This document shows, piece after piece, positions 660 through 36,925 of a stretch of 44,313 nucleotides of DNA. The translations under genes were made by a program, and so were the position numbers. The notes beneath the pieces are model-generated. The model saw only the letters and a program-made list of their open reading frames with translations, was not told where the DNA came from and ran no database searches. Every line of letters starts with the position of its first letter. Position 1 is the first letter of the stretch. Origin of the DNA: a virus (lineage: Duplodnaviria; Heunggongvirae; Uroviricota; Caudoviricetes); the IMG/VR virus record IMGVR_UViG_2740892271_000004; one strand, 5' to 3'.

Positions 660-822
660 ATCATTTGATACCGACAAGGGGTTTAGTGAAAGGAGGTGAA
701 ATCACCTGTAAGATACTGAAATAAAACAGGTGATGGCTAGATGTGCGGATAAGGTCTATTTGATACCGATTGTGCAATAATTAGTCATTTATTATAAAAT
801 CGGCAACTCATTTGATACTGTG
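657..822 (+). repeat. attL: candidate transposase binding sites L1 (661-674), L2 (756-769), L3 (808-820)
   Basis: Direct repeats of TTTGATAC(C/T)G with Mu-like spacing (L1 near terminus, L2/L3 about 95 and 150 bp inward); left terminus begins TG at 657. Confidence 0.6.
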
Positions 823-892
823 GTTTTAGTCTTTTAAGGCGTTCCAAACAATGCGAAATACTCGATATAGTGCAAAATGCGGGCTAATGCTA

Positions 893-1438
893 TTAACCCG
901 CTTTTGGTTCTACCGCGTTAGATTTGCGACTTCTCTCAGTTTCTTCCAAAATCTCTCTGACGCGTTCGTCAGACATACCTTCAAGCTGTAATGCAGCTAT
1001 TCTTTTCCTTCCTTCTAAGCGGATTAGATCTTGATTTTCAGGCTCTAACAACCGAGCTAAGTACTTGGCTCCATTCAGAACCAAATTTTTCGATAGCTGC
1101 TCTAAGTCTTTTTCATCAAGTGCGCTGATAATCGTCATAATTATCTTCTTGCTTTCATCTTGATTTTCCTTGATCTCACACCGATTCACTTGTGATGCAT
1201 CACTGAATCCACATAGCCACTCAACACTTACTCCTTCGATAGACGCAATCTGAAGGGCGACACTTAAGGATGGCTCAGTGCCACGAGACAGATAATTGTT
1301 TAGTGTTGAAAATGAAAGCCCCCAATCTCTTGCTGCAGCTCTGACGCTGCGGGAGCCAATCAGCCTTTTCAGACGCTCAGCAATGCTTTCTTTTCTACCA
1401 CCAGGAAAAGAAAGAGATGTTGTTGTTTGCTTGTTCAT
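893..1438 (-). CDS. c: Mu c-like repressor (HTH DNA-binding)
   Basis: 181 aa, leftward-transcribed first gene as in Mu; HTH-like segment SVRAAARDWGLSFSTLNNYL; SD AGGAAG upstream of ATG at 1438. Confidence 0.75.
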   Translation of the reverse strand: MNKQTTTSLSFPGGRKESIAERLKRLIGSRSVRAAARDWGLSFSTLNNYLSRGTEPSLSVALQIASIEGVSVEWLCGFSDASQVNRCEIKENQDESKKIIMTIISALDEKDLEQLSKNLVLNGAKYLARLLEPENQDLIRLEGRKRIAALQLEGMSDERVREILEETERSRKSNAVEPKAG

Positions 1439-1479
1439 TTTCTTTTCTTCCTATCAATTTGAAATTATTAACTTTTAGT

Positions 1480-1623
1480 GTTGTCAGCAACCATTGATCC
1501 ACAATAGACAAAAGAAAGATGTTTTTTTTGCTTTACATGAAGCAGAAGTGGATCAATACTTATATCAAACTTGATAACTAAGTTTAGTTATCAAATTTCG
1601 TAACTTTTTAGGATAGATGAATC
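1480..1623. promoter_or_regulatory. Divergent early/repressor control region with operator-like inverted repeats
   Basis: 10-bp inverted pair ATTGATCCAC (1493-1502) / GTGGATCAAT (1549-1558); 24-bp palindrome TTGATAACTAA-GT-TTAGTTATCAA (1571-1594); candidate rightward promoter -35 TTTACA 1532-1537 and -10 AATACT 1555-1560 (17 bp spacer). Confidence 0.55.
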
Positions 1624-8039: not shown

Positions 8040-8591
8040 ATGATGAAATTACAACCCATGGGACTAAAAGGTCGCGCCCCCGCTCATGTCCGTCCGTGGA
8101 CACCTGAAGAAGATGCGCTGCTGATTGCGCTTTATTCATCCACCCCGGTTAAGGATATTGCTGCCAGAATAAAAAGAACTGTCTGGGCTGTATATAACCG
8201 GACTGGTGTATTGCGCAGTTCATACCCGGAGTTACTGAAATATAAACACCCAAGATTTACACCTGATGAAGATAAGTTTATTCGAAAAAATGCCAGAACA
8301 ATGACCTGCCAGCAAATGGGAGAATATCTCGGACGTAATAAAGATTCTGTCAGATGTCGGGCAGGAATGATTGGTGCTGGATTAACAAAGTGCGGAGAGT
8401 TACGCCCCGGCACGCGCATATCTGATGATGATGTACGTCTTATACGTGAGCTGCGTGATTCCGATTACCCACGCCGTCTGTCATTCCGGGAAATTGGCGA
8501 AAAGTTTGGAATATCTGAACATTCTGCTCACGCAGTTTATTACCGTCGCCGGACTGCCGAGGACGCTGTATTACGGGAGTTAACGCCATGA
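8040..8591 (+). CDS. Hypothetical DNA-binding protein with three HTH/Myb-like repeats
   Basis: 183 aa; three repeated modules WTPEEDALLIALY..., FTPDEDKFIRKNA..., ISDDDVRLIRELR...FREIGEKFGISEHSAHAVYYRRR. Confidence 0.5.
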   Translation: MMKLQPMGLKGRAPAHVRPWTPEEDALLIALYSSTPVKDIAARIKRTVWAVYNRTGVLRSSYPELLKYKHPRFTPDEDKFIRKNARTMTCQQMGEYLGRNKDSVRCRAGMIGAGLTKCGELRPGTRISDDDVRLIRELRDSDYPRRLSFREIGEKFGISEHSAHAVYYRRRTAEDAVLRELTP

Positions 8592-9057: not shown

Positions 9058-9345
9058 ATGGAAAAAGAAATCAAATTTGCGCCTAAATCTATCGACGAAG
9101 AACTGGCTAAAATCGGCATGCTTGAACGTATGCGGGACATTATCGAATATGCGATAAAAGAAAATCTTGCAGCCAGAGAAGCCCTTTTGATAATGGAGCG
9201 GGAGATTAACCTGATTAAGGATGCTGTATCTCTGGATAATAAAATAGCCCGCGAGGAATACGTTCGCCGTAGGCTCGGTGTTGATGGTTCAGCAATTCTT
9301 ACATCTGAACATTATGCAAAAATTTTTAATCTTTTTCAGCGGTAA
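9058..9345 (+). CDS. Hypothetical helical protein, AT-rich
   Basis: 95 aa from ATG 9058 (ORF track 9043-9345). Confidence 0.45.
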   Translation: MEKEIKFAPKSIDEELAKIGMLERMRDIIEYAIKENLAAREALLIMEREINLIKDAVSLDNKIAREEYVRRRLGVDGSAILTSEHYAKIFNLFQR

Positions 9346-9565
9346 TCCCCATACAGGCCCGGAGATTGTCGAAATGCCAGTCGGTATTAATATATGAGCC
9401 ATCCTGGATATCTTCTGCATTTTCCGGGGTAGAGTTTTTTTGAGCGAGATTGATAATATGTATTGCCTCCTCACGGGAAATCAGCCCCTTATCGAACAGG
9501 GTTACCATAAGATTTCCAGCCATTGTGAATGCGGCAACATCAAGTGCATTTTTTATATCTGACAT
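9326..9565 (-). CDS. Hypothetical protein, opposite strand to the early operon
   Basis: 79 aa; SD AAGGA about 8 nt upstream of ATG at 9565; convergent with 9058-9345 (20-bp overlap). Confidence 0.45.
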   Translation of the reverse strand: MSDIKNALDVAAFTMAGNLMVTLFDKGLISREEAIHIINLAQKNSTPENAEDIQDGSYINTDWHFDNLRACMGITAEKD

Positions 9566-9592: not shown

Positions 9593-9621
9593 TGGCGGTG
9601 CGGTAACACCGCCCATTTTTT
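9593..9621 (+). terminator. Intrinsic terminator, candidate early-operon terminator (Mu t9.2 equivalent)
   Basis: Stem GGCGGTG / CACCGCC with loop CGGTAA followed by CATTTTTTAT; about 8.95 kb from the prophage left end. Confidence 0.7.
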
Positions 9622-9635
9622 ATGGAGCCACGATA

Positions 9636-10148
9636 ATGAATCGCGCTTCCCTGATTACCTTAATACATGTCGCAAAACGCGATCTACAGCTTGACCATGA
9701 TACCTATACATCCGCGCTGCTGGCAGCCACCGGCAAATCCAGTTGCCGTGATATGTCACCCGGTGAGTTATCCCGCGTGCTGGATGTTTTCAAAAAACGC
9801 GGTTTTAAAGTGCGTCAGAAGCCGGTTAACCGGGCCTTAAAACCGGGTACGGTGACCGCCAAAATTCGCGCCATCTGGAAAGTGATGCACCGGCAGGGAT
9901 TTATCTCTGATGGCGGGGAAACGGCCCTTAACCGCTGGGTGAAATCGCAGACGGCCGCGCAGAACGACGGCGAAGGTGTGGCTAACTGGCAGTGGCTGGA
10001 GCAACAACCCGCGCTGGCCTCTGATGTGCTGGAGCGTCTCAAACGCTGGCACCGCCGCAAAATGCTGGCAGCCCTGGATATGTCGGAACGTGCAGTGATG
10101 AGTTATGAGCGTGTTTGCAGGCTGTATGAAAAATCATTCCCCCGTTAA
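9636..10148 (+). CDS. gemA: GemA-like protein (Mu gp16, DUF1018)
   Basis: 170 aa; MNRASLITLIHVAKRDLQLDHDTYTSALLAATGKSS resembles the Mu GemA N-terminus as recalled. Confidence 0.7.
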   Translation: MNRASLITLIHVAKRDLQLDHDTYTSALLAATGKSSCRDMSPGELSRVLDVFKKRGFKVRQKPVNRALKPGTVTAKIRAIWKVMHRQGFISDGGETALNRWVKSQTAAQNDGEGVANWQWLEQQPALASDVLERLKRWHRRKMLAALDMSERAVMSYERVCRLYEKSFPR

Positions 10149-10152
10149 CCCC

Positions 10153-10184
10153 AAATCCCGCCACAGCGCGGGATTTTTATTTTA
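10153..10184 (+). terminator. Intrinsic terminator-like hairpin after gemA
   Basis: 9-bp stem AAATCCCGC / GCGGGATTT, loop CACAGC, followed by TTATTTT. Confidence 0.6.
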
Positions 10185-10218
10185 AACTTGCCCTGTGTAA
10201 TGATGACCGGAGGCGGGT

Positions 10219-10641
10219 ATGGCTGAAACACAGATGAGCATGTTTGGTGACAGCGAACAGCTGCACGCGCTGATTGACCGTCTGGATGATATTCCTGATG
10301 ATGAGCTGAAAAAGAACTGGCCCGGCACGCTGCGGGACCTGGTTGATGTGATCAGTGCTGAACTGCACCGTCAGGGGATTGAACCTGCTCAGGCGGGAAT
10401 GCTTGCCCGTAAGGTTGCAGCCGCACAGGCCGGGTACATGGGCGGGCGTGGTTATTATCTCCCGGTCGGTGAATCCCTTTTCACCGAACTGCGCAATAAT
10501 GAAATTTTTTCCCGCTGGAGCCAGGGCGAAAAAATTGAAACCCTGCGCCGCCACTACCAGATGTCAGAGACGCAGATTTACTCCGTTATCCGCAACCAGC
10601 GTCGCCTGCATCAGGAACGCACGCAGCCACGGCTTTTCTGA
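10219..10641 (+). CDS. mor: Mor/C-family transcriptional activator
   Basis: 140 aa; acidic N-terminus and C-terminal HTH (ETLRRHYQMSETQIYSVIRNQRR) as in Mu Mor/C; only one family member present. Confidence 0.8.
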   Translation: MAETQMSMFGDSEQLHALIDRLDDIPDDELKKNWPGTLRDLVDVISAELHRQGIEPAQAGMLARKVAAAQAGYMGGRGYYLPVGESLFTELRNNEIFSRWSQGEKIETLRRHYQMSETQIYSVIRNQRRLHQERTQPRLF

Positions 10642-10657
10642 TATTCCGCAAATCCTG

Positions 10658-10662
10658 CCCCC
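10658..10662 (+). promoter_or_regulatory. Poly-C motif in candidate late promoter upstream of lys
   Basis: CCTGCCCCCTTTTCC 55 bp upstream of the lys start; similar C-runs upstream of I (18806-18812) and N (25041-25047). Confidence 0.35.
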
Positions 10663-10712
10663 TTTTCCTCACGGTTACGCTGACTCAGAGAACACCATGA
10701 GACAGCGTAACA

Positions 10713-11213
10713 ATGCCAAAACTCCCCGCACCCCTGCGTAAAAAGCTGATTGCCCTTGTTCTGGCCGGAGCCGGGACGTTCACCATTGCCACGCACTACA
10801 CCGGCTACTGGGAAGGGAAAGAAAACACCACGTACATTGATCCCACCGGCACCCCCACCATCTGTTACGGCCATACCGGCCCGGATGTGAAACCGGGGAT
10901 GACAAAAACTGATGAAGAGTGTCTGGAGCTGCTGGAAAAGGACATGAAATGGGCCTTTGCGGCTATCGATCGTCATGTTCAGGTGCCGCTTACCCGTGGT
11001 CAGACGGTGGCGCTGGCCTCCTGGATTTTCTGGGCCGGTGAAACGAACTTTCGCAACTCCACGCTCCTGCGCCTTATCAATGCCGGGCAGATGCCCGCGT
11101 CCTGTAAGCAGTATATCCGCTGGATTTATTCAAAGGGGGTAAAACTCCCCGGTCTTGAGGCCCGCCGTTCGGCGGATGAATGGTTATGTCGTTACGATTT
11201 GCCGAAAGTCTGA
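10713..11213 (+). CDS. lys: Endolysin, lysozyme-like with N-terminal signal-anchor (SAR-type)
   Basis: 166 aa; hydrophobic N-terminus KLIALVLAGAGTFTIATHY, then YTGYWEGKENTTYIDPTGTPTICYGHTG typical of phage lysozyme; Mu lys position. Confidence 0.85.
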   Translation: MPKLPAPLRKKLIALVLAGAGTFTIATHYTGYWEGKENTTYIDPTGTPTICYGHTGPDVKPGMTKTDEECLELLEKDMKWAFAAIDRHVQVPLTRGQTVALASWIFWAGETNFRNSTLLRLINAGQMPASCKQYIRWIYSKGVKLPGLEARRSADEWLCRYDLPKV

Positions 11214-11676: not shown

Positions 11677-11878
11677 ATGGCTGGCTGACTGCCTGGTCCC
11701 TCCCGCGCCGCAGCCGTTCACGTTTGGTGCATCGGTCACTTACAACCTGCAACTGCTGGCGGTGATTAAAAACTGCAACGTGGACAAGGCCAGCATCCGC
11801 CGTCTGGAGACACAGCGACAGCATGAATTTACTGATATGGCCGGAACGACTGCTGTTCCGGCAGGAAAGACGAAGTAA
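11552..11878 (+). CDS. o-spanin (Rz1-like lipoprotein), overlapping i-spanin in another frame; start approximate (TTG)
   Basis: Signal peptide ending in lipobox LTGC (Cys codon at 11621), proline-rich mature part PVKPVPIPAEW...PPAPQPF. Confidence 0.55.
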   Translation: MSAGHWQRCLLPLCLCLMMWLTGCGGPSVKYVPVKPVPIPAEWLADCLVPPAPQPFTFGASVTYNLQLLAVIKNCNVDKASIRRLETQRQHEFTDMAGTTAVPAGKTK

Positions 11879-11888
11879 GGAAAAAGGT

Positions 11889-12116
11889 ATGGATGATTCA
11901 GATTGTGCTCAGGCAGTCATGGAGCGTGCAACAGAACGCGCCCTTTGTGACCGGCTGACACGTAAGCGCCGGGTGGCGGAGACACCGGGCAGGCGTGTAT
12001 GCGCGGACTGCGGGGGTGACATTCCGGCTGCCCGTCTGGTTGCCGTGCCGGATGCCATCCGTTGTGTGAACTGCCAGAACATCATGGAGGCCGGTCATGT
12101 GGGTCAGCATCGTTAA
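11889..12116 (+). CDS. TraR/DksA-family C4 zinc-finger protein
   Basis: 75 aa; CADCGGDIPAARL...RCVNCQ; SD before ATG 11889. Confidence 0.6.
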   Translation: MDDSDCAQAVMERATERALCDRLTRKRRVAETPGRRVCADCGGDIPAARLVAVPDAIRCVNCQNIMEAGHVGQHR

Positions 12117-18102: not shown

Positions 18103-18185
18103 CGGTCAGTGGCGGGGGTCGAACCCGCATACATGATCCACCCGGAGGCAGGCACCGACTTTACCAGTTAAGCGTACACTGACCG
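18103..18185. other. Structured element in F-G intergenic region: 9-bp closing stem enclosing a tRNA T-arm-like hairpin
   Basis: CGGTCAGTG (18103-18111) pairs with CACTGACCG (18177-18185); inner hairpin GCGGG-GGTCGAA-CCCGC; on the minus strand this reads GCGGG-TTCGACC-CCCGC next to the 3' acceptor-like strand; U-rich tract follows on the plus strand. Confidence 0.4.
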
Positions 18186-18223
18186 CCTGTTTATTTTATA
18201 TTCATCCTTTATGCGGAGGCAAT

Positions 18224-18697
18224 ATGTCATCCATTGATGCAGCTGTCGTTGTTGACGTTACGCGTCTCCAGCGAGTGTTTGCCCGGCTTCAGTTTGTGGG
18301 CGGCGGAAAAGACCTGGCCCGCAGTGTGGCGGCGAGTCTTCTGTCATCGTCAGAAATGGCGTTTGAGCAGGAAAAAGAGCCGGATGGTGAACGCTGGCAT
18401 GACTGGTCAGATCCTTACCGTGAGTGGCGTACCCGTAAGGGATACACGCCCGGCAAAATCCTGACGCTGAACGGCGATCTGGCCCGCCGCCTGACCACGG
18501 ATTATGGCGATACCTGGGCGCTGATTGGATCAAATGAACCTTATGCAGCCATTCATCAGTGGGGTGGCCTGCCTGGTATGCCACCGGGACCGGCGGCCAT
18601 TGGCGCACGTCCGTATATGGGCTTTGATCAGGTGGCAGAACAGGAGATCATGGACGAAATCAGAAAACGCTTTAAAAAGGCCACAGAAACGCCGTAA
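18224..18697 (+). CDS. Virion morphogenesis protein, Mu G (gp31)-like
   Basis: 157 aa, SD GGAGG before ATG. Confidence 0.75.
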   Translation: MSSIDAAVVVDVTRLQRVFARLQFVGGGKDLARSVAASLLSSSEMAFEQEKEPDGERWHDWSDPYREWRTRKGYTPGKILTLNGDLARRLTTDYGDTWALIGSNEPYAAIHQWGGLPGMPPGPAAIGARPYMGFDQVAEQEIMDEIRKRFKKATETP

Positions 18698-18874
18698 TGG
18701 TTTAAGGTATGCAAACGTATTACCTTACCCCCTTCAGGCGCGTGTCGTGATTTTCTAACCTGTATTTAACGGGCTTTAAAATCTGCGTGAAGCGCCTTTC
18801 TCATTCCCCCCCTGTCAGCACTTTCTGAAGTCCCGCAAAACCAGCCCCAAAAATACCCGGCTTATGCTGCCGGT

Positions 18875-20008
18875 ATGAAGACAGAAAATCACCCAAAAGA
18901 CGCAAATCGCCCCTCCGGTTTAGCCGTGCTTTCAGCTTCGCTGACTGCATCCGGCGACGGATGGTGTCAGTTACTGCCAGCCGGTCGGGTAAAGGCCCGT
19001 GACGGTCGCCCGGAAAAACCGACTGAAGGCTGGCTGATTAACGAATCCGCCTGTAACCGGATGAAAGCCGGGCTTTCCGCCCTGCATCAGCCGTTACTGA
19101 TTGATTATGACCATCACTCCGTGAATGCGCAGAAAAACGGATTCAAGGCTATTGCTGCAGGATGGGTTAAGCCGGAAAACATCGAATGGCGTGAGGGTCA
19201 GGGGATTTTCATTAAACCTGAATGGACACCACAGGCACAAAAACATATTGATGACCGTGAATATGCCTATCTGTCTGCATATATGCATTATTTCGCTGAC
19301 ACCGGGGAACCCTACCTGTTGCGCATGGCTTCCCTGACGAATGATCCGGGTATTACGGGTATGAACCCTGTCGCGGCACTCAGTGCTGATGATCTCTATG
19401 TCGTTTCCCCTTCTCAGGAGCAATCCCCCATGAATGAGCAATTACGCCAGTTGCTGACGGCGCTCGGTCTGACCGTGGCTGACGGTGACGAATTTACACC
19501 GGAACTGGGCACGGCGGCGCTGTCTGCCCTTACCGGGATCAAAACCCGTGCGGATGCGCACGACACCCTGAAAACGCAGGTTGCCAGCCTGTCGGCAGAA
19601 CTGGAAACCGCAAAAGGCACACCAACTGGCGGCACTATTGATCTGACGAAATATGTGCCCGTTGAGACGTATAACGCCCTGCGTACCGAATATGCCGCGC
19701 TGTCGGCACAACACGGCAGCACCACGCTGGAGCAGTTGCTGGATAAGGCCGAGTCCGAAGGACGCATTTTCAAAAGCGAACGCGGATACATGGAAGGACT
19801 CGGACAACAGATTGGCGTCGCGGCACTTTCTGCACAGCTTGACGCCCGCCAGCCGGTTGCGGCTCTGACCACTCTTCAGACCGACACCGTAACCGTGCCG
19901 GATAAAAAGACCGCCACCGCTGTGCTGTCGGCTGAAGATATCGCCGCCGCACGTCTGTTGGGTAAAACCGAAGCCGAGTTCCTGAAAATGAAAGAGGAAA
20001 TGCAATAA
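18875..20008 (+). CDS. Head protease/scaffold protein, Mu I (gp32)-like
   Basis: 377 aa; N-terminal protease-like region and C-terminal Ala/Leu-rich scaffold-like region; precedes major capsid gene. Confidence 0.85.
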   Translation: MKTENHPKDANRPSGLAVLSASLTASGDGWCQLLPAGRVKARDGRPEKPTEGWLINESACNRMKAGLSALHQPLLIDYDHHSVNAQKNGFKAIAAGWVKPENIEWREGQGIFIKPEWTPQAQKHIDDREYAYLSAYMHYFADTGEPYLLRMASLTNDPGITGMNPVAALSADDLYVVSPSQEQSPMNEQLRQLLTALGLTVADGDEFTPELGTAALSALTGIKTRADAHDTLKTQVASLSAELETAKGTPTGGTIDLTKYVPVETYNALRTEYAALSAQHGSTTLEQLLDKAESEGRIFKSERGYMEGLGQQIGVAALSAQLDARQPVAALTTLQTDTVTVPDKKTATAVLSAEDIAAARLLGKTEAEFLKMKEEMQ

Positions 20009-24983: not shown

Positions 24984-25110
24984 AGAAGCCGCAATTGTGC
25001 TGGGGATGGTGACAAAAAGCGGCCCGGAGTGGGCGCTTAACCTCCCCTTATCGCAGCTTTACCGGCACTGCCGACAGACCGAAAAAATTCTCAGAACGAA
25101 GCAGTAACCC

Positions 25111-27168: not shown

Positions 27169-28513
27169 CACGCCGGGGCGTGGCTCCTTTCGTGGCGTAC
27201 CGTTCCTGGTTTATCAGGAGCAGCGGGAACGGGGCGGACGTAACATTGTGCGCCGTGAATACCCACTGCGTGAAAGCGGCGGTGCGGATGATCTGGGGCC
27301 AAAACTCCCGGAGTTCACATTCACGGTTCTGGTGACCGGAGACGATCTTCAGACACAGCGAAGCCGCCTGCGTGATGCGCTGCGTGCACCCGGTGCCGGT
27401 GAACTGATGCACCCGGATTACGGCACGTTAAACGTGCTGATAAACAGCTTTGAAAGCCGTTATAACGCCAGCGAGCAGGGAACGGTTGAGTTCACGATCA
27501 ACGTGATCCCCGCCAGTGACGATACCGCCCCTGCGGTGGCAGAAGATACGGCAGCTGCGCTGGAGCAGAAAAGCGGCTCAGCAATGAATCAGCTGTTTAA
27601 CACGCTTTCAGACGGCTGGACGGTGATTTCAGACGGTCTGCATGATGTACAGGCCATGACCGACACCATCAGCGATAAGATTGATGCACTGGAGAATGCC
27701 GTTTCGGGGATGGGGATTGTGCAGGATATCAGTGCCTTTACGGCCAGTTTTACTGCCCTGAAAGGCAATGCCGCCGCCCTGATTAATGCGCCCCGTCGCA
27801 TGGCTGAATCGCTGGCCGGAATGTTTGCCGTGCTGACCGGGCTGCCCGGCGATCCTTCCCTGTCTCTGACCGGAAAAGCCGGAACGCCGTCCGGCAGCCT
27901 GACCACAAACCGTGACAGCATGGCAGAGCAGGCCATGCCGCAGCTGTACCGCACACTTTCCTCCCTGCGTTACACCCTCAGCGAACAGGATGATCCACAG
28001 CGCCTGATTGGCCTGACGCCTGCGGCACAGAAAAATATCCGTCTGCTGCGGAGCGTGATGCAGAGTGCAACCCTGGTGTCGCAGGCACAGACGCTCGGAA
28101 AACTGCTGGATCAGGTCATCCGGCAGAATACGACGCACGTTCAGGATACTGACCGTTCGGGCGGACTGGCCTGGCTGGAAAGTTCTGCTGATGTGCAGCG
28201 TATCAACCGGGATTTGAGCGATGCCATGGAACAACAGGTGCTGGATCTGTCCGCACAGGGCTATACCGGGACTGCCCTTGCATTACGTGATGCAGGGCTT
28301 GCGCTGACAGAAGATTTAACCACACGGAGCGTGCATCTTCCCGGTGCTTTTCAGGTCATGGTTCGCACCACCGAACCGGCACTGGTCACGCTGTACCGTG
28401 CCACCGGCAACAGCAGTCGCTGGCAGTATTTTGTCCGCAGAAACAATATCCCCGATCCGGTTTTTGTTCCGGGTGGCCGCAGCGTGGAGGTGATCAGTGA
28501 GCAGCAGGATTGA
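27155..28513 (+). CDS. Mu P (gp43)-like DNA circularisation / baseplate protein
   Basis: 452 aa, position after tape measure. Confidence 0.8.
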   Translation: MASTDTPGRGSFRGVPFLVYQEQRERGGRNIVRREYPLRESGGADDLGPKLPEFTFTVLVTGDDLQTQRSRLRDALRAPGAGELMHPDYGTLNVLINSFESRYNASEQGTVEFTINVIPASDDTAPAVAEDTAAALEQKSGSAMNQLFNTLSDGWTVISDGLHDVQAMTDTISDKIDALENAVSGMGIVQDISAFTASFTALKGNAAALINAPRRMAESLAGMFAVLTGLPGDPSLSLTGKAGTPSGSLTTNRDSMAEQAMPQLYRTLSSLRYTLSEQDDPQRLIGLTPAAQKNIRLLRSVMQSATLVSQAQTLGKLLDQVIRQNTTHVQDTDRSGGLAWLESSADVQRINRDLSDAMEQQVLDLSAQGYTGTALALRDAGLALTEDLTTRSVHLPGAFQVMVRTTEPALVTLYRATGNSSRWQYFVRRNNIPDPVFVPGGRSVEVISEQQD

Positions 28514-29621
28514 ACTGTATATCGGTGGCAGTATTTTTTCCGGCTGGCTGACGGTCAGCGTCCGTCGCTCGCTGGAGCATCTGGCCGGGTCGTTTGAACT
28601 GGGGCTGATGCTGCCCGGTGAGCGCATCCCCTCAGCCCTGCGAACCGGTCAGTCCCTGACGCTCAGAATTAACGGGCAGACGGTCATCAGTGGCTGGCTG
28701 GATCAGGTCAGTCAGCGGATCAGTGCAACCCGTCATCAGATCAGCATCAGCGGTCGGGATAAAACCGGCGACCTGGTGGACTGTGCCGCCATCCATCCCG
28801 GCAGCCAGTGGCGCAACCGGACGCTGGCACAGATTGCCGCAGATTTATGTGCGCCCTTCGGGATAGCCGTGCGCTGGCAGGTTAACGACGACACGGCTGC
28901 ACGCCCCTTCAGCTCTTTTACGCTGGAAAACTCAGAAACCGTGGCGGATGCGCTGACCCGTGCTGCCCGGCATCGCGGGGTGCTGGTGACCAGTAATGCT
29001 GACGGCGATCTGGTGTTCACCCAGGCAGGAAGCCAGCAGACGGACAGACTGGTGCTGGGAGATAACCTGCTTGATGCCGATTACAACACGGACTGGCGAG
29101 GACGATACAGCGAATACCGTGTCCGGGGACACGGGCGCGGTGGTGGCAAACGGGGAGACAGCGAATCCGCCGCCCGTCTGGCAGCACCTGTGGGCGTCAT
29201 CAGTGATGAGCAGATCGGCCGCTACCGGTCGAAAATCATCCTCGCCGATCAACAGACAGACACCACCGGTGCACGGCAGCGTGCCCTGCGTGAAATGCGC
29301 CGTGCGATTGCCCGTTCAGAACGGTTTTCTGCCACCGTGCGTGGCTGGTTCCGGGATGATGGCCGGTTATGGGATGTCAATCTGCTGACCGGTGTTTCAG
29401 CCCTGCGTTTCGGTATAGAACAGACTGAACTGCTGGTCTGTCAGGTGGAGTTTTTACTTGATGAACATAACGGGGAAGTCACCCGGCTGGTACTGGCACC
29501 GCGTGACGGCTTTATCGTTCCGGCAGAGCCGGACAGTAAGGGCCGGGGTGGTTCCGGTGACGATGTTGATGCCTTTATTCGCCAGCAGATGAAAAAACAG
29601 GGGATCAGCTTTGATGAATGA
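28497..29621 (+). CDS. Baseplate hub protein, Mu Q (gp44)-like
   Basis: 374 aa, GTG start after GGAGG. Confidence 0.8.
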   Translation: MSSRIELYIGGSIFSGWLTVSVRRSLEHLAGSFELGLMLPGERIPSALRTGQSLTLRINGQTVISGWLDQVSQRISATRHQISISGRDKTGDLVDCAAIHPGSQWRNRTLAQIAADLCAPFGIAVRWQVNDDTAARPFSSFTLENSETVADALTRAARHRGVLVTSNADGDLVFTQAGSQQTDRLVLGDNLLDADYNTDWRGRYSEYRVRGHGRGGGKRGDSESAARLAAPVGVISDEQIGRYRSKIILADQQTDTTGARQRALREMRRAIARSERFSATVRGWFRDDGRLWDVNLLTGVSALRFGIEQTELLVCQVEFLLDEHNGEVTRLVLAPRDGFIVPAEPDSKGRGGSGDDVDAFIRQQMKKQGISFDE

Positions 29622-34785: not shown

Positions 34786-34870
34786 CGCTTTTTTGAATTT
34801 CCGCAAAACACATATTTTTCAGCGGTCGCTATTCTGACTCTGTTTAATTCAGAAACAGGCAGAAAAGACG

Positions 34871-36925
34871 ATGTCAGACTCCAAGTGGAAAATGCTCTCC
34901 GCCATGCCCGGAGAGTTTTCAGTCAAGGTTGCCGGTGGCACGGTGGCATTTATTGAAAGCCCTTTCCGCCCTTCGGGTAATAAAGGGGGGATCACCTTCG
35001 CAGACTGCGTGATCCGCTTCAGCACGAAAGAGCCATTATGGGTAATGCCGGTATCCGGTAATCCCAGTGCAGAAATCACCAGTTCAGGCGTGACTGGCAT
35101 CATTCCAATCACATCTGACGTGGCCGGAACGCTCACGCCCTCCGACTGGAATGCACCGGATAACGCCGGGCCTTCCGGTAGCACGAATGGCAGCAGTTCA
35201 GAGCCGGAATATTACTTTGTTGTCATTCTCGCGGGTCAGTCAAATGGCATGGCCTACGGCGAGGGGCTGCCGTTACCGGATTCGTTTGACCGCCCGGACC
35301 CACGCATTAAGCAACTGGCACGCCGCAGTACGGTAACGCCCAACGGTACGTCGTGTACATACAACGACATCATTCCGGCAGACCACTGCCTGCATGATGT
35401 TCAGGATATGAGCGGGATAAACCACCCGAAAGCTGATCTGGCAAAAGGCCAGTACGGGACTGTCGGTCAGGGGTTGCATATTGCCAAAAAACTGCTTCCC
35501 TATATCCCACAGAATGCCGGGATACTTCTGGTGCCCTGTTGTCGTGGCGGGTCAGCATTCACCACTGGAGCCGACGGCTCATTCAGTGAGGCCAGCGGTG
35601 CTTCCGCTGATTCTTCACGCTGGGGGGCCGGTAAACCTCTGTATCAGGACCTGGTAAGCCGCACCAAAGTCGCGCTGGCGAAAAACCCGAAAAACAAACT
35701 TCTGGCTGTGGTCTGGATGCAGGGAGAGGCAGACCTTGCCTCAGGAAGCCAGCAGCATAATAGTTTATTCACGGCCATGGTTCAGCAGTTCAGAACTGAC
35801 CTGGCTCCGCTTGCTGCGCAGTGCGTGAGTGGAAATGCCACCACGGTGCCGTGGATTTGCGGTGATACCACGTATTACTGGAAAAACGCTGGCACCGATA
35901 AATATGAGGCAGTATACGGTGGCTACAAAGGCAAGGAAGCACAGAAAATTTTCTTTGTACCGTTCCTGACGGATGAGAATGGACAGAGCACGCCAACGAA
36001 TGCTCCGGCGGAAGACCCGGATATTGTGGCTGTCGGGTATTACGGTGCAGCATCCCGAACCCAGGGCAGTTTTGTTTCGACACAGCGTGACAGCCATTTC
36101 AGCTCATGGGCACGCAGGGGCGTCATTTCAGACCGTCTGGCCTCAGCTATTATGCTCCATGCAGGGCGCACGGCTGAACTGATGCGTGGGCAGACCGTGA
36201 CACCACCGGATGAGAAGCCGTCACCTGATACACCATCAAAACCGTCCACGCCACCCGCAGACACCACGACGATGAGTACGCTATTTGCTTACCGGGCATC
36301 TGAGTCTGAAGGACGGTTGACACCACAGGGTTGGGCTGCCGGAGGTGGCAAGGCTCAAATCGTGGATGATGCCGGAGCCAGCGGGGGTAAGGCAATGAAA
36401 CTGACCAAGGAAACAGGAAGAGCCCCCTGGTACCTTGAGCATGATGCTGGTAATGGTGCGGACCTGCTGGGTAAAGGTGGTCTTGTCAGTTGTCGTTTTA
36501 AACTCGATGGCGCGCTTACGGCTAATCAGTACGCACTGGCGCTGTACTGGCCGGTTTCTGCCCTGCCGCAAGGGGTTACTCTGGAAGGAAATGCCGGTCA
36601 TAACCTGCTGGCATCGTTCTACGTACAGAGCGATGCCACAGACCTTAACGTGATGTATCACAAAGGAAACACGGCGCAGAACACGAAGCTGGGGTCATTC
36701 GGCGCATTTAATAACGAATGGCATACGCTGGGCTTCCGTTTTGCCGGTAACAACAGTATTGAGGTGACGCCGGTCATTGATGGTAAGGACGGGACACCAT
36801 TCATGCTGTCGCAGTCTCCGGTCGGCACGTTTACGGCAGACAAGTTGCGCGTGACCGATATCACTAAAAATGCGACTTACCCGGTACTGATTGACAGTAT
36901 CGTGGTGGAAGTGAATAACGCGTAA
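34871..36925 (+). CDS. SASA/SGNH-family carbohydrate O-acetylesterase (NanS-like) with C-terminal putative carbohydrate-binding domain; prophage cargo gene
   Basis: 684 aa; GQSNGMAYGEG (GQSN catalytic-serine motif) and VVWMQGEADL motif; lies between gin and com, where Mu has no gene. Confidence 0.7.
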   Translation: MSDSKWKMLSAMPGEFSVKVAGGTVAFIESPFRPSGNKGGITFADCVIRFSTKEPLWVMPVSGNPSAEITSSGVTGIIPITSDVAGTLTPSDWNAPDNAGPSGSTNGSSSEPEYYFVVILAGQSNGMAYGEGLPLPDSFDRPDPRIKQLARRSTVTPNGTSCTYNDIIPADHCLHDVQDMSGINHPKADLAKGQYGTVGQGLHIAKKLLPYIPQNAGILLVPCCRGGSAFTTGADGSFSEASGASADSSRWGAGKPLYQDLVSRTKVALAKNPKNKLLAVVWMQGEADLASGSQQHNSLFTAMVQQFRTDLAPLAAQCVSGNATTVPWICGDTTYYWKNAGTDKYEAVYGGYKGKEAQKIFFVPFLTDENGQSTPTNAPAEDPDIVAVGYYGAASRTQGSFVSTQRDSHFSSWARRGVISDRLASAIMLHAGRTAELMRGQTVTPPDEKPSPDTPSKPSTPPADTTTMSTLFAYRASESEGRLTPQGWAAGGGKAQIVDDAGASGGKAMKLTKETGRAPWYLEHDAGNGADLLGKGGLVSCRFKLDGALTANQYALALYWPVSALPQGVTLEGNAGHNLLASFYVQSDATDLNVMYHKGNTAQNTKLGSFGAFNNEWHTLGFRFAGNNSIEVTPVIDGKDGTPFMLSQSPVGTFTADKLRVTDITKNATYPVLIDSIVVEVNNA

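Follow-up and report, generated by a model that had tools for sequence, protein, structure and literature searches.

Late transcription in phage Mu starts from four promoters, namely Plys, PI, PP and Pmom. The gene for the late activator C is preceded by a middle operon that depends on the paralogous activator Mor, and the order of genes and signals in this part of the Mu genome is gemA, mor, the early terminator with the middle promoter Pm, E18, E19, gp20, C and lys. Proteins of the Mor/C family are small (~100–150 aa) and consist of an acidic N-terminal half and a basic C-terminal half with a C-terminal helix-turn-helix (PMC2582627). Their sites are 16-bp imperfect dyads centred at -43.5 that replace the -35 element, with important bases located just downstream (PMC2582627, PMC4390567). 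Furthermore, it has been reported in 2026 that Mu C requires two sliding-clamp-binding motifs, QHDLF and QPDLF, whereas Mor has only a partial N-terminal one; the motif was defined as Qx[DE][LM]F for the N-terminal and QPDLF for the C-terminal copy, with the host consensus QL[SD]LF (PMC12867686). In the Mu-like phages SuMu, phiMhaMu2 and 3927AP2, lys directly follows a single mor-like gene and the middle genes are absent (PMC4553209).

The window analysed here (the whole stretch of 44,313 nucleotides) contains a complete Mu-like prophage of Escherichia coli, 38.6 kb in length (646–39279), that lies entirely within it; the approximate ends (~646 and ~39279) were placed by comparison with two E. 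coli relatives of known insertion site. When queried by tblastn with all 54 annotated Mu proteins, the window shows a collinearity with phage Mu that extends from ner, A and B across the head and tail genes as far as gin, com and mom. It belongs to a family of Mu-like prophages of E. coli and Shigella, which we take to be the family of Sp18 of O157:H7 Sakai. Among 5426 complete E. coli genomes, 231 (~4%) carry the block gemA-activator-lys, at 84–99.7% identity. The block is labelled in RefSeq, among the matches listed, as ‘gp16 family’, ‘Mor transcription activator family’ and ‘lysozyme’, and is also found within two records of Stx-converting phages as an ‘inserted Mu-like phage’; the identical 140-aa activator protein is encoded on at least 1000 contigs. 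Searches of the window with Rfam and ARAGORN returned zero matches. The set used for comparison is small and includes three E. coli lineages, one Salmonella contig (L004) and one metagenome contig; another relative (L006), the assembly of which is ridden with frameshifts, was left out. The features of the locus are collected in Table 1.

Table 1. Genes and predicted transcription signals of the prophage discussed in the text.
Feature	Position	Strand	Basis
gemA homologue, last gene 5' of the terminator	9636-10148	+	GemA PF06252, E 1.8e-28; 46% identity to Mu GemA
Predicted intrinsic terminator: 9-bp stem and 6-nt loop (10153-10176), then TTATTTT	10153-10183	+	terminator scan, RNA fold
Candidate -10 TAAACT of the activator gene's own promoter	10183-10188	+	position kept in relatives; putative function
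Single Mor/C-family activator, C-like, 140 aa	10219-10641	+	Pfam Mor PF08765, PHROG 532, PDB search, alignment
Predicted Plys: dyad TTTCTG-ATATTC-CGCAAA (10635-10652), 23-nt C-rich spacer including CCCCC, -10 TACGCT (10676-10681)	10635-10681	+	sequence; kept in L002/L003 and L005
Phage lysozyme (lys)	10713-11213		PF00959
Predicted PI: dyad TTTCTG-AAGTCC-CGCAAA (18822-18839), 23-nt spacer, -10 TATGCT (18863-18868)	18822-18868	+	sequence; kept in L002/L003, L004 and L005
Frameshift extension of the tail assembly chaperone, holding 25041-25047; not a promoter	24984-25107	+	frame conserved with Mu and L002/L003
Predicted P3: dyad TTTTTG-AATTTC-CGCAAA (34790-34807), 22-nt spacer, -10 TATTCT (34830-34835)	34790-34835	+	sequence; dyad and -10 kept in L007/L008

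The activator gene and its uniqueness

The order of elements in the prophage is gemA, terminator, activator, lys, and the single Mor/C-family gene that an earlier note on this DNA had placed between gemA and lys is confirmed, both by its own family match and by the flanking GemA and lysozyme genes. The encoded protein matches the Pfam Mor family over profile positions 2–107 of 107 (E 6.7e-31, 106.9 bits, cutoff 24.9) and PHROG 532, ‘late transcriptional activator’ (E 1.4e-44). It has the size that is typical of the family and the characteristic distribution of charges, with 13 D/E against 7 K/R among residues 1–70 and 7 D/E against 11 K/R among residues 71–140 (by residue count), and its helix-turn-helix region aligns with that of Mu C.

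All comparisons place this protein nearer to C than to Mor at the level of sequence: in a PDB search, Mu C (9l0x) is matched at E 2e-28 and 102 bits and Mor (1rr7) at E 2.5e-11 and 46.7 bits, and the identities are 39.7% to Mu C vs 27.8% to Mu Mor in tblastn and 41% vs 30% in the alignment. The protein further resembles C in its length of 140 aa and in the position of its gene immediately 5' of lys, as well as in the predicted sites at the morphogenesis and lysis operons that are described below. One attribute of a C-type gene, a Mor-dependent middle promoter, is missing: the window contains no mor gene and no Mor-type site is visible upstream of the activator gene. E18, E19 and gp20 are absent as well and, unlike in Mu, no Mor-dependent middle operon precedes the activator gene.

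The activator also carries two motifs that resemble the clamp-binding motifs of Mu C, QMSMF (aa 5–9) and QPRLF (aa 136–140, the last five residues). The third position of QMSMF is S, as in the host consensus, and the C-terminal QPxLF is of the C type, whereas Mor has QPSLL in the alignment. Both motifs are largely retained in the relatives and are degenerate in L005.

No second member of the family, which the earlier note had named as a finding that would speak against its proposal, was found in the six frames of the prophage. Used as tblastn queries, Mu Mor and Mu C both match the activator ORF alone in the window, and in an unfiltered search with an HMM built from Mor, C, the 140-aa activator and three relatives this ORF scored E 4.3e-74, with E of at least 0.5 for every other segment (839 stop-to-stop segments of at least 30 aa). 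Since there is no second family member in the prophage, the cascade most likely includes a single Mor/C activator. The suggestion that the cascade is shortened thus stands in the sense that there most likely is one such tier, but not as a peculiarity of this prophage, because the layout is the usual one among the relatives of Mu. Of the 36 phage records that match the activator, two matches per record are found only in those of the Mu type (Mu, D108, SfMu, Yersinia vB_YpM phages and similar), and a single match is found in each of Pasteurella Pmp9, Pseudoalteromonas HS6, Shewanella MuM16-1 and MuM16-2, Vibrio Mu-like phages and BcepMu. SuMu, phiMhaMu2 and 3927AP2 likewise have one match per genome, although these single-activator phages differ from the window in their hosts and in the sequence of the activator (28–44% identity). 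In L004, L005 and the E. coli relatives, genes for GemA, one Mor-family protein and lysozyme follow each other in that order. A scan of genome contigs with the activator protein as the single query gave no match, and a scan with an alignment gave two Pasteurellaceae loci only. Outside Mu itself, Mu-like phages commonly have one activator immediately 5' of lys; phages of this kind make up the majority of the Mu-like ones in the phage collection, and instances of the layout are already in print (PMC4553209).

Predicted dyad promoters

When the regions upstream of lys and I are aligned with those of the relatives, a common block TTTCTG-N6-CGCAAA-nCC-nGCC emerges, followed at a fixed distance by TACGCT or TATGCT. 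The pattern derived from these two sites identified one more, near-perfect copy, P3, which provides an independent confirmation: it is intergenic, corresponds in its place to Mu Pmom and has a -10 at the right spacing. The shared site of the activator is likely to be the 18-bp imperfect dyad TTWYTG-N6-CGCAAA, located 22–23 nt 5' of a TAnnnT -10. The dyad pattern occurs exactly three times against an expectation of 0.08, and 0 of 100 shuffles reach this number. In an all-against-all comparison of 17 non-coding stretches, the three dyad sites hold all ten best 20-mer matches, and the region upstream of the tape-measure gene is absent from the top places. Furthermore, when both strands were scanned with position weights taken from the three sites, these scored 33–36 and no other position scored above 20.

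The assignment of these promoters rests on their sequence and its conservation. Relatives whose activators are 84%, 67% and 50% identical retain the dyad, the 22–23 nt spacer and the TAnnnT hexamer, although their flanks diverge. This architecture is present at all three sites (Plys, PI and after gin) in L002/L008 and L003/L007, at PI in the Salmonella contig, and at Plys and PI in L005, the activator of which is 50% identical; the Plys site of the Salmonella contig is degenerate (TTCAAC-ACCAAC-CGCAGA). A Haemophilus relative has CGCAAA-N22-TACACT 3' of its activator gene. Directly 3' of the dyad, the lys and I promoters have a C-rich stretch, a loose feature at the level of composition that most of the corresponding promoters of the relatives show as well.

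With the putative +1 set 7 nt past the -10, the dyad spans -53 to -36 and is centred at -44.5 in Plys and PI and at -43.5 in P3. All three predicted promoters thus combine a -10 and an imperfect dyad near -43.5 with the lack of a -35, which, judged from the sequence, is the classic layout of Mor/C promoters. The left half-site of Plys overlaps the 3' end of the activator gene (its final Leu and Phe codons and the stop codon), and the start codon of I (18875) coincides with the predicted +1 of PI. The P3 dyad begins 5 nt past the stop codon of gin, and the promoter precedes an ORF of 684 aa (34871–36925) with a SASA/DUF6645 assignment in Pfam.

The likeness to the Mu C promoters extends to the C-rich region just 3' of the dyad and to the places of the sites, before lys, before I and after gin. 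The half-sites differ: those of Mu C fit TTAT-N5-6-ATAA, whereas the arms of the TTWYTG...CGCAAA dyad lie 4 bp farther apart than in TTAT-N6-ATAA. When the Mu genome is scanned with TTAT-N5-6-ATAA, the published consensus, Pmom is picked out together with a candidate within N, at 27291, which fits the location of PP inside N. Against the four late promoters of Mu, three are detected here, with none inside N and none directly before com-mom. In the position-weighted scan, the place that matches PP (28185) is at background score and has no -10. The region upstream of com-mom contains no dyad promoter but retains the GATC cluster seen in Mu, and the promoter after gin would drive the SASA/DUF6645 gene, unlike in Mu. 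No strong plus-strand terminator was found downstream of PI as far as the tail genes reach, so that one long PI transcript is the simplest reading, and we assume that the tail genes are transcribed from PI. A near-match on the minus strand at 38081 (N5, 19-nt spacer) is not conserved in L007/L008 and was rejected as a promoter.

The early terminator and expression of the activator gene

The activator gene is separated from gemA by a strong hairpin, as previously noted. The hairpin sequence (AAATCCCGC-CACAGC-GCGGGATTT) begins 5 nt past the gemA stop codon, contains 5 G-C pairs in its 9-bp stem and folds at -13.5 kcal/mol (z = -4.2; 0 of 200 shuffles as stable). With its G+C-rich stem-loop and U-tract 3' of a stop codon, it is a good predicted Rho-independent terminator, and it is kept in L002, L003 and L004. 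E. coli strain M3 carries, between gemA and the activator gene, an insertion of 640 bp that includes a minus-strand gene and is bordered on each side by a copy of the hairpin, one of which also ends this convergent inserted gene; next to the activator gene only the hairpin, the T-tract and TAAACT remain.

A -10-like hexamer follows the T-tract at the same position as TAAACT in the window and in L002/L003 and as TATAGT in L004, with divergent sequence downstream, and in L005 TATACT lies at a comparable place shortly after the T-tract of that locus. The only -35-like sequence is GCCACA, which is located 17 bp 5' of TAAACT in the hairpin loop and matches at 3 of 6 positions. A standard sigma-70 scan of 10149–10218 gave no promoter, and no late-type dyad is recognisable upstream of the activator gene. 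Given that M3 keeps only the hairpin, the T-tract and TAAACT, the promoter unit would seem to be complete in itself, and a need for sequence within the 3' end of gemA is less likely. Such a promoter may be weakly constitutive, autoregulated or dependent on an early protein, such as that encoded at 8040–8591. The arrangement resembles that of Mu Pm and the early terminator t9.2, where a hairpin and T-tract also lie inside a promoter-like region with a -10 and no -35, directly before the next regulatory gene. However, the Mor-type site of Pm (AGTAA-N6-TTAAT) has no visible counterpart here, and the hairpin is centred at about -30.5 relative to the conserved -10, vs about -38 in Mu Pm.

We consider it probable that the prophage follows the transcription programme of Mu in an ordinary version with two tiers, with one late activator of the C type encoded immediately 5' of lys. 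By analogy with Mu C, this protein would bind the 18-bp dyad centred ~44 bp 5' of the start, in place of the absent -35, and would recruit sigma-70 RNA polymerase to the TAnnnT -10 located 22–23 bp 3' of the dyad. Plys would then serve the genes from lys through G, which function in lysis, DNA packaging and head assembly. PI would serve the other head genes and the tail genes, apparently without an internal promoter or strong terminator, and the promoter after gin would serve the SASA/DUF6645 cargo gene. The activator gene, behind the terminator of the early operon, would be expressed probably from its own weak promoter, represented by the -10-like hexamer past the T-tract, and/or by read-through. 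The two clamp-binding motifs known from Mu C are both present in the activator, and a delay like that due to the Mor tier in Mu may therefore come from coupling to replication.

Among the alternatives, the one that survives best is that a three-tier cascade is retained, in which the role of Mor is played by a host factor or by an early protein from outside the Mor/C family, for example, the 183-aa Myb/HTH ‘D5-like regulator’ encoded at 8040–8591. The conserved -10 without a good -35 after the terminator is typical of activator-dependent promoters, and candidate early genes exist: ORF 8040–8591 matches PHROG 323, ‘transcriptional regulator, D5-like’ (E 5.3e-53), with weak HTH/Myb matches in Pfam, and five small early ORFs have no family assignment. 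Nevertheless, we regard this scenario as unlikely, because no conserved dyad or other site is seen near -44 upstream of the activator gene across lineages, the sequence 5' of the hairpin is replaced by the insertion in M3, and nothing that was found ties any early ORF to the promoter of the activator gene.

Still less probable, in our view, is positive autoregulation, whereby the single activator would act at the promoter of its own gene and thus take the parts of both Mor and C, with a basal supply by read-through of the terminator. The element CCCAAATCC at 10149–10157 does resemble the right half-site of Plys with its flank (CGCAAATCC), and the layout is similar to that of Mu Pm, with a site that overlaps the left arm of the early terminator and is followed by a T-tract and a -10. 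However, the element has no left half-site (TCCCCC vs TTTCTG), its distance to the conserved -10 is 4 bp longer than that in the late promoters, L005 lacks it, and the M3 variant has it in altered form. Its conservation elsewhere is accounted for by the fact that most of it is hairpin arm.

It is also very improbable that the inverted repeat at 10153–10176 is mainly a protein-binding dyad, i.e., an operator, rather than a terminator. Its core, CCCGC-CACAGC-GCGGG, has the 5-6-5 layout of Mor/C sites and is centred at exactly -43.5 relative to TGTAAT (10196–10201), but this hexamer does not have the key A at its second position, and it was rejected as a -10 because neither L002/L003 nor L004 conserve it. 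Moreover, the repeat is unlike the dyad of the late promoters, a G+C-rich stem with a T-tract directly past a stop codon is the standard signature of a terminator, and the hairpin copy that ends the inserted gene of M3 points in the same direction.

The reading that fares worst, and that we regard as hardly credible, is the one put forward in the earlier note, in which runs of C at similar distances upstream of lys (10658–10662, CCCCC), I (18806–18812, CCCCCCC) and the tape-measure gene (25041–25047, CCTCCCC) form a shared activator site that defines three late operons. Runs of at least five C are rare, with 14 on the plus strand of the window, found in only 3% of 100-nt intervals, and lys and I each have one upstream. 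Chance alone therefore does not account for runs at two promoters, but they reflect composition rather than a motif, as does the C-rich sequence 3' of the dyad in most of the relatives' lys and I promoters. The runs themselves are altered in close relatives in which the neighbouring promoter elements are invariant: L002/L003 (~85% identity) have CCGCC at the first and TTTTCCCC at the second. The distances are not similar either, given that the first run lies at -30 to -26 of Plys and the second at -69 to -63 of PI, i.e., outside the promoter. The third run is part of a coding sequence, where it encodes N-L-P-L in a frame conserved with Mu at the protein level (..KSGPEWAL(N/S)LPLS..(Y/F)RHC..), and has neither a dyad nor a -10 as a partner. 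A late promoter before the tape-measure gene is thus not supported; the third promoter, at 34790, instead follows gin and has no C-rich spacer.

Late transcription in the prophage family

Within the two-tier programme that we favour, a more specific and rather speculative scenario, which we consider possible but on balance doubtful, is an early-to-late switch without a middle tier. The single C-type protein would be produced slowly, from a promoter that lacks a -35 and is embedded in the early terminator, would become effective, through its two motifs, once replication loads sliding clamps, and would act at three promoters, with PI giving a leaderless mRNA for the head protease/scaffold gene I. 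If this is the case, the prophage would be a minimal natural model of replication-coupled late transcription.

The correction of the poly-C assignment, which was tempting but wrong, is one outcome of the comparison, and the significance of the remainder is mostly one of annotation. The dyad TTWYTG-N6-CGCAAA, placed 22–23 nt before TAnnnT, provides a concrete promoter model for a family that ~4% of the complete E. coli genomes carry, O157:H7 strains among them. In this model, one promoter of the activator type appears to serve a cargo gene (SASA/DUF6645), in place of the com-mom promoter of Mu. The single-activator layout supports the view that the Mor-then-C cascade of Mu is a special case among the Mu-like phages.

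Start of gene I and the region ahead of it

The predicted activator promoter of gene I (PI), which encodes the head protease/scaffold, lies close to the coding sequence: the gap from the end of its -10 hexamer to the gene I ATG is 6 nt in the window, in the two Escherichia coli relatives that are ~85% identical (L002 and L003) and in the relative with 50% activator identity (L005), and 7 nt in the Salmonella relative (L004). Given this spacing, the 5' end of the predicted PI transcript would fall at or beside the A of the ATG, yielding a leaderless mRNA; furthermore, none of these five sequences has a Shine-Dalgarno sequence before the gene I ATG. In Mu, by contrast, gene I has a leader of ~30 nt with AGGA.

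The G-I intergenic region (window 18750-18800) contains an 11-mer, GTATTTAACGG, that is also found in Mu, where a strong gyrase cut site is annotated ~45 bp to its left. This stretch, which sits between gene G and the second of the C-runs proposed as activator sites in an earlier note, may be a conserved gyrase site. The tRNA-like element between the F-like and G-like genes reads GCGGGTTCGACCCCCGCCA in reverse complement and is labeled 'tRNA-OTHER' by RefSeq in relatives; ARAGORN and Rfam made no call for it in the window.

Coordinates of the features discussed (window unless a relative is named)
Feature	Window	Relatives	Strand	Details
PI -10 to gene I ATG	18863-18877	L002 ~28944-28958; L004 ~18605-18620; L005 ~10636-10650		
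tRNA-like element	~18105-18190		minus	between F-like and G-like genes; conserved
Second strong terminator-like hairpin	9594-9622		plus	GGCGGTG-CGGTAA-CACCGCC, then CATTTTTTAT
640-bp insertion	equivalent to 10149-10218	L011 (E. coli M3) 780-1497		between gemA and activator gene
Activator-flanking sites		L009 1040-1110; L010 2420-2480 (Pasteurellaceae)		
14-codon ORF	10697-10741			ATGAGACAGCGTAAC...; covers lys start codon in a different frame
DksA/TraR C4 zinc-finger protein	11823-12116			within lys operon; Pfam PF01258, E 1.3e-11

Terminators around gemA and the genes that follow

In addition to the terminator hairpin after gemA, the second hairpin is positioned directly upstream of this gene, past a minus-strand ORF (9326-9565), so that gemA is bracketed by two predicted terminators. 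In E. coli M3, the insertion encodes a minus-strand hypothetical gene and is flanked on both sides by copies of the terminator hairpin (two in all); the hairpin seems to mark where the insertion joins the prophage sequence. In both Pasteurellaceae relatives, a terminator precedes the single activator gene, as in the window, followed by a conserved dyad, ATTCC-N9-GGAAT, that overlaps a TATCAT promoter in its -35 region; in this lineage, the dyad may be an operator for the activator gene.

Farther downstream, the 14-codon ORF may serve the endolysin gene as an upstream ORF, either coupled to it or regulating it; positions 10696-10725 are unchanged between the window and the relatives at 85% identity. 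The DksA/TraR protein is retained in L002-L005 and may be an RNA-polymerase-binding accessory factor in late transcription.

Prophage flanks, cargo module and com-mom

The sequences flanking the prophage (1-645 and 39280-44313) are not Mu-like. A Mu U-like tail fiber assembly match is present outside the prophage, at 42063-42230, which suggests that the prophage resides inside or beside another phage-derived region.

After gin, a 684-aa ORF (34871-36925) carrying a SASA carbohydrate-esterase domain and DUF6645 lies downstream of the third activator-type promoter and is predicted to be driven by it; its product is presumably similar to the NanS-p esterases of Stx phages. In relatives, this ORF is followed by DUF1378 and DUF826 genes. 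The cargo module with the SASA/DUF6645 gene occupies the place of Pmom-com-mom in Mu.

Upstream of com-mom in the window (38180-38260), GATC sites are clustered (TCGATCGTTTTTGTCGATCGAT), as they also are in the Mu mom control region. Because only ~35 nt separate this cluster from the com start, and because no dyad promoter (TTWYTG-N6-CGCAAA followed by a TAnnnT -10) is found upstream of com-mom, mom must, judging from this arrangement, be transcribed differently from its counterpart in Mu.
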